Source: a virus
Strand: one strand, 5' to 3'
Virus record (IMG/VR): IMGVR_UViG_3300009506_000001
Location: 32,001-96,000 of that record
Length of the DNA: 64,000 bases
Part shown: positions 3-26,101 of the stretch, in pieces
How positions within the stretch are numbered: position 1 is the stretch's first letter
How the letters are laid out: each line of letters begins with the position of its first letter
Made by a program: the position numbers and the translations under genes
The notes under the pieces: model-generated
Told to the model about the DNA's origin: nothing
The model's database searches: none
The model's input: only the letters and a program-made list of their open reading frames with translations

Positions 3-827
3 TGGATTTCGATATGTGTAGATGACTGCTTTCTTACCAAACTCTATAATGTGCATCACTTGTATAGATTTAAGGATCTGAATGTTGCCAAGATCAGAAC
101 TGGATGGTAGGACTCCGGTCCCTGCTGCATAATCCAGTCCAGGTTGGTTTGTGTTAATTCCACCTGTTGCTCGATCTGGAGTTCTCAGATCCTCTGTTAG
201 AAGAGATGCTGTTTCGGCAGCGTTCCAATCCATTCCAGATTCTTCATATTCGCTTGCATAAGCATCTTCCATAATGTTTGTGATAGGACTCATCAAACGG
301 ATGTACGTATTCCACCAGCTTCCTGTTGCATCTTTCAAGTCGTCATACATTGTGATGGTTGCAGGTTGAAATTCAGAGCGTCGAAGAACCTGAGTACGGT
401 AATTGTACATATTGACTTCTTCATATTGGTAATTCATATTGGGGCGGGTCGCCTGTTTCACAAACCAATAAGGTGCACCATCAGGAAAAGCTGTGCCACC
501 AAATAGTGTCTGGAAGTCCGGATACAACTCAAACTTCGTTGCAAACATGAACGGAAATTTTGGTGGCTGCAAGGCCGAGAAGAAACTTGCATAAGGTGTT
601 GGGGGACAGCGAAGTTCATTTAGTGCACTTGAAAACTGCCCGGCTACAATATCACCACGCTTGAAAGCATTGACGCCACCTTCAATACGATCACCAATGT
701 TCTCCAGCGTTTGCTGAACATTATCATAGTCACGACGAAGATCACGGGTACGGAAAGATGGGGATCGGCCACCCAAATTGGTACCTGTTGTTGTAAAACT
801 TGTCAAACACATGCGTGGATCTGGCAT
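3..827 (-). CDS. Tail-tube-like protein (gp19/gp54-like paralog), truncated by the window edge
   Basis: Not in the ORF track. Read manually: MPDPRMCLTS...QPPKFPFMFATKFEL...FVKQATRPNMNYQYEEVNMYNYRTQVLRRSEFQPATITMYDD, a tube-fold motif. AGGAG RBS and TAAATA late promoter upstream. Confidence 0.7.
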   Translation of the reverse strand, partial: MPDPRMCLTSFTTTGTNLGGRSPSFRTRDLRRDYDNVQQTLENIGDRIEGGVNAFKRGDIVAGQFSSALNELRCPPTPYASFFSALQPPKFPFMFATKFELYPDFQTLFGGTAFPDGAPYWFVKQATRPNMNYQYEEVNMYNYRTQVLRRSEFQPATITMYDDLKDATGSWWNTYIRLMSPITNIMEDAYASEYEESGMDWNAAETASLLTEDLRTPDRATGGINTNQPGLDYAAGTGVLPSSSDLGNIQILKSIQVMHIIEFGKKAVIYTYRNP

Positions 828-1595: not shown

Positions 1596-3812
1596 TTAGA
1601 TCTCAGCCCCAGTAGAGACGATTCTGATTGGTATATAAATGAATTCAGCAGCCTTGACTGGCTTCAATGCCACGTCAATGTACATCTCGTTACGGTCAAT
1701 ACGAGCTGGTGTATTATTTGTTTCATCACAAATCGTAGCAAAGTCATACAAACCACGCTTGACGACGATGTCGCTCAAGAATGCATCCACAACAGCCTTC
1801 AAGTTATTACGTGTTAGCTGATCGTTTGGCTGGAACACAAAGCTCATTGTATTCTTACGTAGCTGACGACGGATGTACGCAATCAGACGAGTAACATTGA
1901 TGCGGTCAAGAGCACTTGCATCTGGTGCAGATGTCTTCTGACCCCAAACCAGAATACCACGACCTGGGAAGAACGCAATTGGGTTAACATTGACAAAGTA
2001 GCGATATAGATCGTCACGCTGTCCCTGATCAACATAAGTTGGAACAAATGTTGTTGGTAGTCCGAGAGTACCGGACACATAACCAAGCTCAGATACGCCT
2101 GTAACAAGACCACGACGAGTACCTGCTGGTGCAAACCAAACCTCAGAAACGCTGTCACTGTATGCCCAAGTCTTCAGTGCTGTACCAGAAGGAGCTACAA
2201 CAATCTCCTTACCATCGACATTTGTAACAACCTGCCATGGGTAGTAGTAAGAGATCAAGTTACTTGATGCACGATCTGCTGTCTGTGCCCAAGCAACAGC
2301 CTGGGAAGGTGTCATGTAAGAAGGTGTGTCACCAATTACAACAGCCTCCTGCTTGATAGCATTGCTAACTGCTAGATCAACTAGCTCAGCATTTGTTTCC
2401 CAGTAACCTGGGCAAACGATAATGTTGTATTCAAAGTTCTCAGAGCGAACATCGCTGTTACCAACAATCTCTGCCTGTAGAGCTGTCACAATAGCCGTAC
2501 GACGGGCAGCATCGTTAGCACCTAGGCTTGTTAGGTTAAAGAACTCATGTGTGTACTTGTAGTCATCTGCAGCAGCGATCAGATCGTCTGCAGCATCCTG
2601 TGCTGTCCACTCTTCTGGGAAGGATGGATTAGAACCAGCACCTGGGAATGTACCATCGGAACCTGGACCAACTGTATCACCGTTTGCATTAATGTTATTG
2701 GTTGTACCAGAACGACCTTCGATACCAACATATGGTGGTGCAACTGCTGGCTGGTCAAAGCCGTTAGGAAATACATCCAAACCACCGGTTAGAGAGGAGT
2801 CATCCTCAAATGTTGCTTCTACGTTTGAGAAGGAATACAGAGGATAAACAACATCGGTCATTGCATCGTTTAGCAGAGATAGGTACTCGGAAGAATCAAT
2901 TGTCTCCTTGTAACCATCAACACCGGTTGTAGTTGTTGCTGTGTAGCCATCTGGGCTACCTGGAACCATTGTCTGGAAGAAGCCAGGAGTTGTCATAACA
3001 ACAGATGTGCTAGAACCTAGCTCTGTACCACCACCGTTAACAGCATCGCTCTTGATCTGGATGGCACCAGATACTAGTGTTGCTGTTGCAGCAGAGCCAA
3101 GCTGGGCATTAATGTCATTTAGTAGCGATCCAACATTGTGAACGTCTGGAGAACCTGCTGGTGTACCACCTGGGGAACCAACACCTGGAAGTGGGGAACC
3201 TGTTGGTGCACTCAAAGTTAGGACAATTGGAGTACCATCAACAGTAACTGTGGCTGTATCACCTGCAACAACGTTTAGCACTGTTGCATTTGTCAAAGCT
3301 GCCGTGTAAGATAAAGTAACGTAGGCATTTACCCAAGGATCACCTGGGAACTTCTGGTTTGTTAGGTTTGTCTCTGTAAGGTAAGTATTGACAAGGTTTT
3401 CCAATACAAAGGAAGCTTCCGTAACCTTCGTATCCCAAAGGGTGCGAAGATTGTCAATGTTGTCATCAAGGTTAACATTTGCACGAACCACATATGCAAG
3501 GGAACCCTGATTCAAATACTGTTGCAGAGCAGCCAGACCGTACTCGTTACGAGCATCGCCATCGTGACGGTTTCCAGAAGAATCTTCTAGGAAAGCTGGA
3601 ACACCGTAAAGTTCCAGAGCTGTCTTCTGAGAAGTAACGGTTCGAACAACACCACTCTCATAAGTGCCTGGTGCTGGCGTCACACCGTCCTGCTGGACTT
3701 TTTCATCCTGTGTTGCGATGAAGAACAAAGGAACTGTGGAAGAGCCTGCTGGAATGAAAAAGCTCTCATCAGTTACCGTTACACTTACACCTGGGCTTAC
3801 TAATGTTGCCAT
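1596..3812 (-). CDS. gp18: Contractile tail sheath protein with an inserted surface domain
   Basis: MATLVSPGVSV start; WFAPAG..RG, WGQKT, LDRINVTRL, ICDETNNTP..IDRN, KPVKAAEFIYIP motifs. Confidence 0.96.
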   Translation of the reverse strand: MATLVSPGVSVTVTDESFFIPAGSSTVPLFFIATQDEKVQQDGVTPAPGTYESGVVRTVTSQKTALELYGVPAFLEDSSGNRHDGDARNEYGLAALQQYLNQGSLAYVVRANVNLDDNIDNLRTLWDTKVTEASFVLENLVNTYLTETNLTNQKFPGDPWVNAYVTLSYTAALTNATVLNVVAGDTATVTVDGTPIVLTLSAPTGSPLPGVGSPGGTPAGSPDVHNVGSLLNDINAQLGSAATATLVSGAIQIKSDAVNGGGTELGSSTSVVMTTPGFFQTMVPGSPDGYTATTTTGVDGYKETIDSSEYLSLLNDAMTDVVYPLYSFSNVEATFEDDSSLTGGLDVFPNGFDQPAVAPPYVGIEGRSGTTNNINANGDTVGPGSDGTFPGAGSNPSFPEEWTAQDAADDLIAAADDYKYTHEFFNLTSLGANDAARRTAIVTALQAEIVGNSDVRSENFEYNIIVCPGYWETNAELVDLAVSNAIKQEAVVIGDTPSYMTPSQAVAWAQTADRASSNLISYYYPWQVVTNVDGKEIVVAPSGTALKTWAYSDSVSEVWFAPAGTRRGLVTGVSELGYVSGTLGLPTTFVPTYVDQGQRDDLYRYFVNVNPIAFFPGRGILVWGQKTSAPDASALDRINVTRLIAYIRRQLRKNTMSFVFQPNDQLTRNNLKAVVDAFLSDIVVKRGLYDFATICDETNNTPARIDRNEMYIDVALKPVKAAEFIYIPIRIVSTGAEI

Positions 3813-15168: not shown

Positions 15169-15225
15169 CTATAGTTTTGGGGAAGTTATGATAACCCTAA
15201 AGTAGGTATTTATTTGAACTTTTTG

Positions 15226-15438
15226 TTATGCAACAACTGCATATGTGGCAATATCGTACCAGTCGGCAGCTTCACCTGCTGGGGAGCCAGCAGCCTGACG
15301 TGCAACTGCAACTGCACCCAAACCACCATTTGCATCAGATACAAAAACCAAGTTACCAAGATAATCAGCTGCTACAGGTAGAGTTGCTAGTGTATACGAG
15401 ACCAGTTGAGCTGGACGTCCATTATTTAATAGTGCCAT
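15226..15438 (-). CDS. 70-aa putative capsid decoration protein, paralog 2
   Basis: MALLNNGRPAQLVSYTLATLP...; near-duplicate of 15465-15677; AAGGAA RBS. Confidence 0.7.
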   Translation of the reverse strand: MALLNNGRPAQLVSYTLATLPVAADYLGNLVFVSDANGGLGAVAVARQAAGSPAGEAADWYDIATYAVVA

Positions 15439-15464
15439 TTGCGTATTCCTTTTAAAACTTTGTA

Positions 15465-15677
15465 TTAGGCTACAACTGTGTAGTCGACAACATCGACCCA
15501 TTCAGCAGCTTCACCAATTGGAGAACCACTGGTGTAACGTGCAACTGCAACTGCACCCAAACCACCATTTGCATCAGATACGTAGACCAAGCTGCCAACG
15601 TGCAGTGCAGCTGCTGGTAGAGTTGCTAGCGTGTAAGAGACCAGCTCAGCTGGACGTCCGTTATTTAATAGTGCCAT
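15465..15677 (-). CDS. 70-aa putative capsid decoration protein, paralog 1
   Basis: YTLATLPAAA..G.LVYVSDA motif; late promoter at 15720-15727; located in the head cluster. Confidence 0.7.
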   Translation of the reverse strand: MALLNNGRPAELVSYTLATLPAAALHVGSLVYVSDANGGLGAVAVARYTSGSPIGEAAEWVDVVDYTVVA

Positions 15678-15719
15678 TTTTCTTTCTCCCGTTAAGTAAG
15701 TTTAAAGTATTTGTTATAT

Positions 15720-18305: not shown

Positions 18306-20045
18306 TTATTGTAGACCGCCTGCTTCTGCGGCTCCTGGACCACCTGCTTCGGCTTGTGCGGCTTCTATGCCAGCTCCACCACCTGCTTCGCCACCTGCAC
18401 CGGCCTCCATTCCCATTTCACCGCCAGGTGCTCCTAAAGGTGCTGGACCACCCATTGCGGACATGCCGCCAACGCCACCAAGTGCACCCATTTCCTCACC
18501 AGTACCATACAACATAGGCAGATCACCAGGCTTTTGGTTATCTGGGTCCATGCCACGCTCTTCACGCAGCATACGCTCGTTCATAATAATCTCTTCGTCT
18601 TCCATCTGTAGGTAACGAGACAGAATGAAACGCTTAGACAGATATGGAATCGAATCTGCAGAACCATACGTACCAAGTAATGCAGCATCCGTCTCCTGCT
18701 GACGATATACACCAAAGTTTGTTGGGTCTGGAAGACGAATTCGATATAAAGCCTCATCAATAATGATGTTGGAACGGCGAAGATATTTCTTGAACTCTGC
18801 ATCAAGAACCTGTTCTATATAGCCCTGTAGTCGCTGAATGTAAAGAGCAAAACGTAACTCCTGGATGTAAGCAACACCAACTTTACCATCATTAAAGACT
18901 GCACCTTCTGCACCTTCTGTCATGTAGGAAGTAGGTATACGAAGACCACGCCATACTTTCTTCTGGAAGTATTCCAAGTCAGCCAATTCACCAAGGCCCT
19001 GACCACCAGGCAATGTATCAACTTTGGAACCACGACCATCAGCACGCTGAGCAAAGAAGAAGTCTTCACTCATTGATTGTGGATTGTAAACAGAATCTAC
19101 GTTCTGCTGGCCACCATTGATGGTTGGAACCTTCTTCTGTTTGATTTCATTCTTGATCTGCTCCAGGTACGTCTTAACACGCTGTGGAGGCATTTTACCA
19201 ACGTCAATATAGAAAACACGACGTTCTGGTGCACGCTGAATACGATAAATGATAACAGCATCTTCGAGCAGTTCCTTTTGCTTGTGAGCACGATAGACTG
19301 GTCCAAGAACAGAGTCACCAAATGGTGCTGCATCGGACATGTCATCATTTAGTGTGAAGCGAACGATTTCATCTGATGGAACAAGCTCTGTGCTAATGTC
19401 TGAGGAGGCACTTGAGACGGGTACACCATAGCTTGCCTTTACTTTCTTTGAATCTGTTTTAACCTGCCAACCGAGAACATTTGTAACATCATTTTCATCA
19501 ACTAAGGCACCAACAATGTTCTTTGGATGAATGTACTGCCACTTGACTGTTGGTTCTTGTTTAATTTTTCGGAAGAAACAATCCCCATACTTTGCGGTCA
19601 TTCGGGAAACTTTAAACAGCCGTGTCTCCCAGTCGTGAATCTGGCTCCAATACTTCAGAGCAGCTTTTAGGGTCAATACTGTGGAGTTTGAAACTCGCTC
19701 TTCCTTTTCGGCGTCAACCTGAACGATTAGGCACTCGTCGGTTTTGGGTTCGTTACCCGTCATTTCTTCGGCAATTGTGTCAAGGGCACGAGCGACCTCA
19801 ACGTCGTTGTCCATAAGATCGTATTCACGGTAACGGGTGAGACGAGAAGCAGAACCCTGAACAAGACGCTGATACCAGCTGAAATTACCATACGCACCTT
19901 GGTCACCAATTGACTGATTGTCGGTAACTTTCGTGACGTTAGGCTTTGGTTCAACCAATTTGTAGAAACCAGTCCACTTTGCGTGGTTACTGGTTCGTCT
20001 TGGCTGTTGTTCCTGAGCTGAAAAGTCTTGTGCTAGTTCTGGCAT
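18306..20045 (-). CDS. gp20: Portal protein
   Basis: LLEDAVIIYRIQRAPERRVFYIDVG, SMSEDFFF, TLPGGQGLGE; Gly-rich tail. Confidence 0.97.
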   Translation of the reverse strand: MPELAQDFSAQEQQPRRTSNHAKWTGFYKLVEPKPNVTKVTDNQSIGDQGAYGNFSWYQRLVQGSASRLTRYREYDLMDNDVEVARALDTIAEEMTGNEPKTDECLIVQVDAEKEERVSNSTVLTLKAALKYWSQIHDWETRLFKVSRMTAKYGDCFFRKIKQEPTVKWQYIHPKNIVGALVDENDVTNVLGWQVKTDSKKVKASYGVPVSSASSDISTELVPSDEIVRFTLNDDMSDAAPFGDSVLGPVYRAHKQKELLEDAVIIYRIQRAPERRVFYIDVGKMPPQRVKTYLEQIKNEIKQKKVPTINGGQQNVDSVYNPQSMSEDFFFAQRADGRGSKVDTLPGGQGLGELADLEYFQKKVWRGLRIPTSYMTEGAEGAVFNDGKVGVAYIQELRFALYIQRLQGYIEQVLDAEFKKYLRRSNIIIDEALYRIRLPDPTNFGVYRQQETDAALLGTYGSADSIPYLSKRFILSRYLQMEDEEIIMNERMLREERGMDPDNQKPGDLPMLYGTGEEMGALGGVGGMSAMGGPAPLGAPGGEMGMEAGAGGEAGGGAGIEAAQAEAGGPGAAEAGGLQ

Positions 20046-20067: not shown

Positions 20068-20075
20068 TATTTATA
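20068..20075 (-). promoter_or_regulatory. T4-type late promoter TATAAATA
   Basis: Exact motif upstream of the portal gene. Confidence 0.8.
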
Positions 20076-25190: not shown

Positions 25191-25535
25191 TTAAATAGCC
25201 AGTGCTGAACCCTGTTCGATTAAGTCGGTAGCTCTTCTGCTTTCCGTAGCAGGTTTGTTATTTTCTATGATTTGGAAGCTTGTCTGGGTTTTTGTCTGGA
25301 AGTAGTCTAGTAGTTCTTCGTCTGTGTAAACATTGTTGGGATATACATCTTTCTTGTCAATTTTCAATCGGGACCAAAAAATTCGGAAACCTTCAGATTT
25401 TTCGTAGATTGAAATTTTTTCGGGGAGGGAGAGTTCTGATTGATGGGAGGAAAAATAATTGAGAATAGAAGACCACTGGATTAAATCACTAAAGTCAGCT
25501 TCTAAGGCTGTCCGAATATTATTCGGGATGGTCAT
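25191..25535 (-). CDS. Hypothetical late protein
   Basis: AAGGAG RBS; TATAAATA at 25570-25577; AT-rich composition. Confidence 0.55.
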   Translation of the reverse strand: MTIPNNIRTALEADFSDLIQWSSILNYFSSHQSELSLPEKISIYEKSEGFRIFWSRLKIDKKDVYPNNVYTDEELLDYFQTKTQTSFQIIENNKPATESRRATDLIEQGSALAI

Positions 25536-25615
25536 TTCATCTCCTTTACGTTTCTGCCTAAATCGGAACTATTTATAACTCCCTACTATAACCCATCGAA
25601 AAAATTTTGGCAACG

Positions 25616-25813: not shown

Positions 25814-26101
25814 TTAGTCATCTCCTAGTAGTTTCATTGCATCGTCATAATTGGTTATCTGATCACGTACTCGTTCCCGTACTTTAGCAACAATATCAGG
25901 AACGGCCGCAGGTTGTCCGTCACGGATAGGTAGGTACAGAACCTCAAATCCACGCTTGTTAAACAAAGGACCTACGCTTTCCTTTACTTTCTCCAGGTAG
26001 TCCCTGACACGCTGTGGAGGCATTTTACCAACGTCCACGTACATTACTATCAGGTCCATCTCTGGATCGTATTCGCTCAAGTTTAACATTTCAACCTGCA
26101 T
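25814..26101 (-). CDS. Small protein carrying a copy of the portal clip motif
   Basis: YVDVGKMPPQRVRDYLEKVK versus portal YIDVGKMPPQRVKTYLEQIK. Confidence 0.75.
   Translation of the reverse strand: MQVEMLNLSEYDPEMDLIVMYVDVGKMPPQRVRDYLEKVKESVGPLFNKRGFEVLYLPIRDGQPAAVPDIVAKVRERVRDQITNYDDAMKLLGDD

Follow-up and report, generated by a model that had tools for sequence, protein, structure and literature searches.

A free-standing protein related to the portal clip domain in an uncultured giant T4-like phage, a candidate mimic of the terminase docking site

In phage T4, the clip of the portal protein gp20 comprises residues 279–358, folded as three strands and one helix, and lies exposed on the outer side of the capsid, as the attachment site of gp17 and subsequently of gp13 (PMC4493910). 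Residues N291, M292, R295 and K296 at the clip tip face or contact gp17, and their mutation abolishes packaging (PMC4493910). A 24-residue peptide corresponding to gp20 residues 288–311 binds gp17 and inhibits packaging (cited in PMC4493910). The roles of the T4 clip are confirmed in PMC9958956, where the resolvase gp49 (endonuclease VII) is also reported to be bound to the portal. A preliminary description of the DNA analysed here had named this segment of gp20 as a terminase-docking region and endonuclease VII as a partner of the portal, and both points agree with the published work.

The window analysed is a stretch of 64,000 nucleotides that represents bases 32001–96000 of a 155-kb IMG/VR record with a CheckV completeness of 44%. 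Related records reach 350 kb and carry terminal repeats, and the source is therefore considered to be an uncultured giant T4-like phage. The portal encoded in the window, which contains YIDVGKMPPQRVKTYLEQIKN, matches the T4 gp20 structures 3JA7 and 6UZC with an E value of 1e-32. In the clip region, residue n of the window portal corresponds to T4 residue n+7, as judged by a phmmer alignment to 3JA7. The motif VFYIDVGKMPPQRVK.YLE.IKNEI shows almost no amino-acid variation among 80 related portals, and the codons for it vary freely.

A second, much shorter ORF in the window (Table 1) encodes a protein, designated P0001, that contains YVDVGKMPPQRVRDYLEKVKE. A ribosome-binding sequence (GAGGA) is located 9 nt 5′ of its ATG, there is an 11-nt overlap between its start and the end of the upstream RuvC-like gene, and its own stop runs into the ATG of the downstream zinc-ribbon gene as TAAATG. 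The extent, strand, length and motif given for this ORF in the preliminary description, and the presence of YIDVGKMPPQRVKTYLEQIKN in the portal, were borne out. No Pfam (E ≤ 0.01), PHROG or NCBIfam family was matched by P0001, and the INPHARED phage collection included no match to the region at the DNA level or to P0001 at the protein level. P0001 also falls below the Pfam Portal_T4 threshold and, as a protein of this size that aligns to portal residues 277–347 only, is not a full T4-type portal protein.

Table 1. Features of the window and of the mosaic relatives of P0001. Positions are those of the window; residue numbers refer to the protein named.
Feature	Position	Strand	Evidence or details
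P0001, clip mini-protein gene, 95 aa	25814..26101	(-)	ORF translation
P0001 residues 19-43, clip strand beta1 and helix, VMYVDVGKMPPQRVRDYLEKVKESV	25973..26047	(-)	BLASTP, hhalign 97%; corresponds to portal 277-301, T4 gp20 284-308
P0001 residues 53-71, strands beta2-beta3, EVLYLPIRDGQPAAVPDIV	25889..25945	(-)	hhalign to portal 329-347 FFFAQRADGRGSKVDTLPG
P0001 C-terminal tail NYDDAMKLLGDD, copy of the [YF]-[DEN]-x-A-M tail	25817..25852	(-)	Motif search
29-nt patch identical to the portal gene, encoding the clip tip D-V-G-K-M-P-P-Q-R-V	26007..26035	(-)	Exact match
Twin of the 29-nt patch in the portal gene, portal residues 281-290	19177..19205	(-)	Exact match
Portal gene, 579 aa, T4 gp20 type	18306..20045	(-)	PF07230 E 2e-94; phrog_213 E 8e-98
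TATAAATA, T4-type late-promoter motif, 22 nt 5′ of the portal ATG	20068..20075	(-)	Motif search
RuvC-like resolvase, 164 aa, directly upstream of P0001	26091..26585	(-)	PF02075 24.1 bits (cut-off 22.2); phrog_159 E 2e-35
Zinc-ribbon gene, 65 aa, directly downstream of P0001	25616..25813	(-)	PF09723 E 9e-13
78-aa acidic ORF ending AYDRAMKGI, two genes upstream of P0001	26634..26870	(-)	L004 homologue ends AYDRAMKGL
Mosaic piece similar to portal 294-322			P0026, P0038
Mosaic pieces similar to portal 319-347 and 355-369			P0016, P0017, P0024, P0025
Mosaic piece similar to portal 468-497			P0054
Mosaic piece, P0028 109-138, similar to window major capsid protein 67-96			Pfam Gp23 match
Mosaic piece, P0035 104-124, similar to window major capsid protein 210-230			

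BLASTP aligned P0001 residues 19–43 with the portal at 16 of 25 identical positions (64%, E 7e-10). When a family profile built from 10 sequences was compared with the portal profile using hhalign, 27 columns were aligned (97%), and a profile of 43 sequences placed P0001 residues 19–73 on portal residues 277–347 over 55 columns (97.2%, E 2.9e-11), with LYLPIRDGQPAAVPDIV opposite FFFAQRADGRGSKVDTL and the portal loop 303–328 skipped. The family member P0033 is related to portal residues 277–350 by a single BLASTP segment that has its gap at the same place. Homology to the clip was judged by strand β1, helix α6 and the β2–β3 hairpin, all of which are found in P0001. Given the n+7 offset and the limits of the T4 clip, P0001 is the counterpart of T4 residues 284–354, a clip without the long loop. 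As far as can be judged from sequence, P0001 is very probably a free-standing paralogue of the portal clip domain, with high confidence for residues 19–45 and moderate confidence for residues 53–73. The stand-alone copy of a clip motif recognised in the preliminary description was thus a real one, and the copied part is larger than first seen, extending to the whole clip (residues 19–73).

Like the T4 gp20 clip (PF07230; 3JA7, 6UZC), P0001 presents one strand, a helix and two further strands in that order, and its tip residues are identical to those of the portal of its own phage. It differs from a T4-type portal in that the stem, wing and crown, as well as the ~25 residues of the portal loop 303–328, are absent; in the addition of an N-terminal extension and a C-terminal tail of its own; and in being encoded in a recombination gene row and not in the head operon. 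By the n+7 offset, residues 23–46 of P0001 are the positional counterpart of the T4 gp20 peptide 288–311. The counterparts of T4 N291, M292, R295 and K296 are K26, M27, Q30 and R31, which are identical to K284, M285, Q288 and R289 of the window portal, and both the K-M and the Q-R pair lie within the 29-nt patch listed in Table 1. The T4 peptide is a laboratory reagent, whereas P0001 is a natural protein of a distant T4-like phage, and its binding to terminase is predicted only.

A first AF2 model of P0001, made from 2 sequences, had a pLDDT of 64. The later model, made from 43 sequences, consists of a strand (residues 17–23), a helix (29–48) and a strand (53–60), with pLDDT >90 over residues 21–60. 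A structure search of the ESM Atlas identified a cluster of Portal_T4 fragments (TM 0.50 over P0001 residues 13–74), which is taken as a lead only. Foldseek and VIA-align searches of the PDB with both models returned generic strand–helix–strand folds and no portal; the clip makes up only a minor portion of the long portal chain. The best PDB match was of the 4-oxalocrotonate tautomerase type (Foldseek E 0.1; VIA Z <5), and such units, which have a common small fold, are the nearest structural neighbours of the model at a non-significant level. They work as oligomers, which fits the tandem members of the clip family described below. Assignment of P0001 to the 4-oxalocrotonate tautomerase superfamily was rejected, as the protein starts with MQVEM and so has no catalytic N-terminal proline, sequence similarity is absent, and the Foldseek E value is 0.098. 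In the AF2 monomer, β1 is paired with β2 of its own chain, whereas in the portal it is paired with the neighbouring subunit. Hence, the tip of P0001 may be presented differently from that of the portal.

Relatives of P0001 were sought by an exhaustive HMM profile search of 1.84 billion representatives; a word-indexed search had given one relative. A total of 55 relatives were identified at E ≤ 1e-3, including 18 at E ≤ 1e-10, and the best matches were P0004 (4.5e-29) and P0005 (7e-26). Nearly all of the 55 are 70–255 aa in length and come from short metagenomic contigs, as do P0003 and P0004 according to a cluster look-up. In P0004, the tip includes G-N-M-P-P-K-N and H-M-Q and is thereby similar to that of T4. 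The family is characterised by three motifs in the order L-x-L-S-x-[YF]-D-P-x-x-D (N-terminal), V-D-V-G-K-M-P-P-x-R-V-x-x-Y-L and R-G-F..L.I-P.R.G, together with a length of about 80–140 aa, and P0001 has all of these features. Distant members are 42–58% identical to P0001 over the full length. No model in Pfam, PHROG or NCBIfam covers the family. The ORF for P0001 is therefore a real conserved gene, and the 55 relatives counter the possibility, allowed for in the preliminary description, that the ORF was not conserved.

Several members of the family carry two clip modules in tandem, namely P0032, P0033, P0041, P0042, P0047, P0050 and the protein encoded at L130 1297–1668 in genome G024, and this arrangement fits a strand–helix–strand unit that works as a dimer. 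Longer members are mosaics, in which the clip module is joined, in varying order, to short pieces 40–60% identical to conserved portal segments that include the loop, β2–β3, the start of the stem helix and the crown. Pieces of the major capsid protein are found in two members (Table 1). That conserved peptides of head proteins have been captured repeatedly is the main reason to consider a role in mimicry or as a decoy.

The exact 29-nt match between the genes for P0001 and the portal, reported in the preliminary description, was confirmed, as was the match of CTCCAGGTA at equal offset (25991–25999 and 19161–19169). A repeat finder extended the pair to 54 nt with 83% identity, including CTCCAGGTA. 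Only two copies of the 29-mer are present in the 155-kb record, and no additional copy was found there with up to 5 mismatches. Within IMG/VR, the exact 29-mer was found beyond the source only in the portal gene of the closest relative, L004, the portal of which is 89% identical, and among the 80 related portals exact runs of 29–31 nt shared with P0001 were confined to those of the source and L004. By our estimate, the chance expectation of an exact 29-nt match in 64 kb is ~1e-8. With the amino acids given, the probability of identical codons at D-V-G-K-M-P-P-Q-R is ~0.0013–0.0023 under the codon usage of the source phage, or ~6e-5 when Y-L-E is included.

Contig L134 carries both a family member and a portal gene, and there the ten tip residues are identical in the two proteins but 7 of 9 degenerate codons differ, indicating that the motif is kept by selection on the protein. 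As the codon identity in the source phage is improbable by chance and the codons in L134 differ, the 29-nt identity points to a local and recent conversion and not to a standing mechanism. The likeliest origin of the exact DNA match is therefore a short tract recently converted from the resident portal gene. An assembly artefact is an unlikely source of the match because the two copies have unrelated flanks and sit in frame within separate conserved genes. The codon identity agrees with the recent copying or gene conversion proposed in the preliminary description, whereas the further proposal, that this keeps the two genes in step, is not supported, given the synonymous differences in L134. 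A comparison of four genomes likewise gave no support for co-variation between the tips of the mini-protein and its cognate portal. The two proteins have the same tip in the source genome G000 and in L134, both with a portal tip of the clade-consensus type, and the mini-protein does not follow the portal in G024 and G025, where the portal tip is deviant.

P0001 is encoded in a minus-strand row of genes for a 244-aa Lys-rich protein, SbcD-like and SbcC-like proteins, the 78-aa ORF, the RuvC-like protein, P0001 and the zinc ribbon, beyond which lie a TATAAATA motif, a 114-aa ORF and a helicase gene. In the closest relative, L004, the genes for SbcD, SbcC, a homologue of the 78-aa ORF, RuvC and the zinc ribbon are found in the same order, with a gap of 20 nt between the last two and no gene for P0001, and at least 8 further relatives have a tight RuvC–zinc ribbon junction with no room for it. 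Hence, P0001 is considered an accessory insertion in the source lineage. A profile search of 24 related records, among them one complete and one 90% complete genome, detected a family member only in G024, where a tandem two-module form lies among genes for nucleotide metabolism. The complete or near-complete genomes G016 (350 kb) and G007 include no clip mini-gene, which indicates that the gene is dispensable.

Elsewhere, family members are located between SbcC and RuvC in L134 and L151. In L135, the member follows a 164-aa ORF and lies near genes for a primase and a helicase; this 164-aa ORF was considered as a RuvC and rejected, as it has no BLASTP similarity to RuvC and no PHROG or NCBIfam match. 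The member in L133, which is 42% identical to P0001, is 12 nt 3′ of a large terminase gene that is itself preceded by a small terminase gene (region L133 3969–6291). This adjacency is suggestive. It is one of six known contexts, and the large terminase gene of the source phage, at about 29.5–31.1 kb in G000 C1, is ~27 kb from that for P0001. The proximity to RuvC emphasised in the preliminary description is real in the window, but the functional tie it implies is weakened by L004 and the at least 8 others that have the junction without P0001, and by the members found elsewhere.

No T4-type late-promoter motif (TATAAATA) precedes the genes for RuvC or P0001. The best σ70-like site, matching 11 of 12 consensus positions, is ~4.5 kb upstream of P0001 and 5′ of the gene for the 244-aa protein, and the region holds no excess of such sites (18 found, 13.6 expected). 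The claim that the row is driven by σ70 depends on this one site and is not upheld. That P0001 is expressed before the portal is plausible, in that the row is tightly packed and of an early type and the portal gene has TATAAATA, but this timing derives from gene order only. A copy of TATAAATA is found at 25570–25577(-), within the 80-nt gap between the zinc-ribbon gene and the 114-aa ORF (25191–25535), so that transcription of a late unit may begin within the early-type row.

The C-terminal tail of P0001 recurs on other small proteins. The tail is defined as the motif lying no more than ~12 residues from the C-terminus of a small protein and following acidic residues, as is the case in P0001. 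In addition to P0001 and the 78-aa ORF, two small ORFs in G000 C1, at 2340–2738(-) and 152271–152492(-), end in DDAYERAMRGI or DDAYDRAMDFLNP. The tail is therefore present on at least four ORFs of the record, and the strict motif occurs elsewhere at 3.3e-5 per residue. About 23 of 43 clip-family members carry it. In relatives, the slot between SbcC and RuvC is hypervariable and is occupied by small unrelated ORFs arranged in rows; of the 76 ORFs in it, 18 have the tail, including four consecutive ORFs in L134 and three in L015. The unrelated ORFs with a tail of the form (D/A)-[YF]-[DEN]-R-A-M-[KGS]-h-h are located at L151 8495–9787, L134 9495–10614, L015 1646–2414 and L036 2321–3601. No ORF with the tail motif was found in the complete relative G016. 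The tails differ from one another at synonymous sites, which indicates that the motif works at the protein level and rules out a DNA-level recombination cassette site. The tail is read as a short docking helix for a common partner, a putative hub. We presume that its [FY]-x-x-A core resembles recombinase-binding FxxA motifs.

The reading preferred here is that P0001 is a clip paralogue acting as a soluble mimic that competes for terminase. The gene would have entered the source lineage between the RuvC and zinc-ribbon genes as an accessory gene, and its tip patch would later have been converted by the resident portal gene, leaving 29 identical bases. Expression of P0001 from the early-type row of recombination genes would precede that of the late portal, and the protein would show the same tip, G-K-M-P-P-Q-R, with which the portal docks the large terminase. 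As the two tips are the same, P0001 would bind the docking surface of terminase as a soluble competitor, and could either hold the motor or its nuclease in check until proheads exist or tie terminase to the hub bound by the tail. We infer the timing of expression, the binding to terminase and the effect on packaging, and the whole statement, mechanism included, is given a probability of roughly 0.45. Against competition for terminase stand the PDB fold searches, which gave no portal, the single terminase-adjacent context among six, the tips in G024 and G025 that do not track their portals, and the dispensability of the gene.

A role in countering host immunity would make use of the same resemblance. 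P0001 would imitate the part of the portal that is sensed by Avs4-type or similar defences, titrating or blocking them before the portal appears. Accessory, patchy and fast-moving genes in a hypervariable slot are typical of counter-defence, and this reading would also account for longer relatives that append further conserved portal pieces (P0016, P0017, P0024, P0025, P0054) or major-capsid pieces (P0028, P0035). The conserved N-terminal region of the capsid protein is the reported Gol trigger of the Lit defence (PMC3014915). However, P0001 itself has the clip only, no sensor is known for the uncultured host, and a protein resembling a trigger ought to activate a sensor and not to silence it, unless it blocked oligomerisation; an immune decoy is rather unlikely for P0001. 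The capsid piece of P0028 may fall in the Gol region. Less probable again is an action on portal assembly, in which the free clip would pair its strands with the clips of portal monomers, either delaying ring formation in the manner of a chaperone or cap, or acting as a dominant-negative poison against portals of related co-infecting phages. A lone strand–helix–strand unit normally needs a partner sheet, several members are tandem duplications, and a tip almost invariant in 80 related portals would allow one mimic to fit many phages. However, the phage's own portal would also be poisoned, a portal-adjacent context is not known among family members, and the part that is best conserved and was converted is the outward-facing tip and not the strand edges.

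An adaptor that links RuvC or another recombination protein to the packaging machine, replacing the contact between endonuclease VII and the portal in T4, is suggested by the translational coupling of P0001 to RuvC, by the members adjoining RuvC in L134 and L151 and by the report of gp49 bound to the T4 portal (PMC9958956), and the common tail would suit docking to a common hub. We nevertheless rank it slightly below an effect on portal assembly and consider it improbable. The three instances beside RuvC come from relatives with shared synteny and so count as non-independent; the mini-gene lies on one side of RuvC in some genomes and on the other side in others; RuvC is present without it in L004 and in most other relatives; the ORF upstream of the member in L135 has no similarity to RuvC; and the tail also occurs on unrelated small proteins far from RuvC. 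The sporadic distribution of the gene and its absence from complete relatives would be in keeping with a functionless fragment of the portal, captured by illegitimate recombination and open by chance. This is strongly disfavoured, as 55 relatives keep features foreign to the portal (the N-terminal L-x-L-S-x-Y-D-P, R-G-F and the tail), distant members are still 42–58% identical to P0001 from end to end, the reading frame is undisrupted and has a ribosome-binding site and translational coupling, and in L134 the motif is kept in amino acids despite 7 synonymous changes. Competition for terminase remains the reading preferred among those considered.

What appears to be new at this locus, from its sequence, is a known domain, the portal clip, living as a separate protein, together with its probable 29-nt conversion patch, its insertion between the genes for RuvC and the zinc ribbon and the link to the slot of tail-bearing genes between SbcC and RuvC. 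The portal clip is the hub for the packaging motor and then for the neck, and packaging in T4 is blocked by a synthetic peptide that spans precisely this segment. A copy of the clip that is natural, conserved and separately expressed would be a phage-encoded regulator or mimic of the terminase–portal interface, and full-text literature searches on portal mimics and decoys found no paper describing such a protein. P0001 also offers a ready-made probe of the terminase–portal contact. If the immune-decoy reading were true, these phages would be imitating their own conserved structural patterns. The tail points to a putative hub protein served by many small accessory proteins, and the mosaic members show that short conserved pieces of head genes have been captured repeatedly. 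A broader and doubtful proposal is that giant T4-like phages make soluble 'epitope' mimics, composed of a folded clip, in some cases with portal stem or crown or capsid peptides, and in many cases with an address tail, that intercept readers of virion surfaces. Either the pattern-recognition immunity of the host or the packaging motor of the phage itself could be the reader intercepted. If this proposal holds, such proteins would represent a general mimicry strategy not described in the literature searched.

Additional features were observed in the sequences examined. The portal has a Gly/Ala/Met-rich, low-complexity C-terminal extension of ~60 aa (window 18306–18460(-)) that T4 gp20 does not have, and the DNA under it contains 30-nt direct repeats. 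In the head operon, a 224-nt direct repeat with 79% identity at 15217–15679 represents two tandem small paralogous genes. In L134 (6133–9483), the SbcC-like gene matches the window SbcC in three separate pieces over 3.3 kb, and it may be interrupted by an insertion or by an intein- or intron-like element, or may be rearranged.
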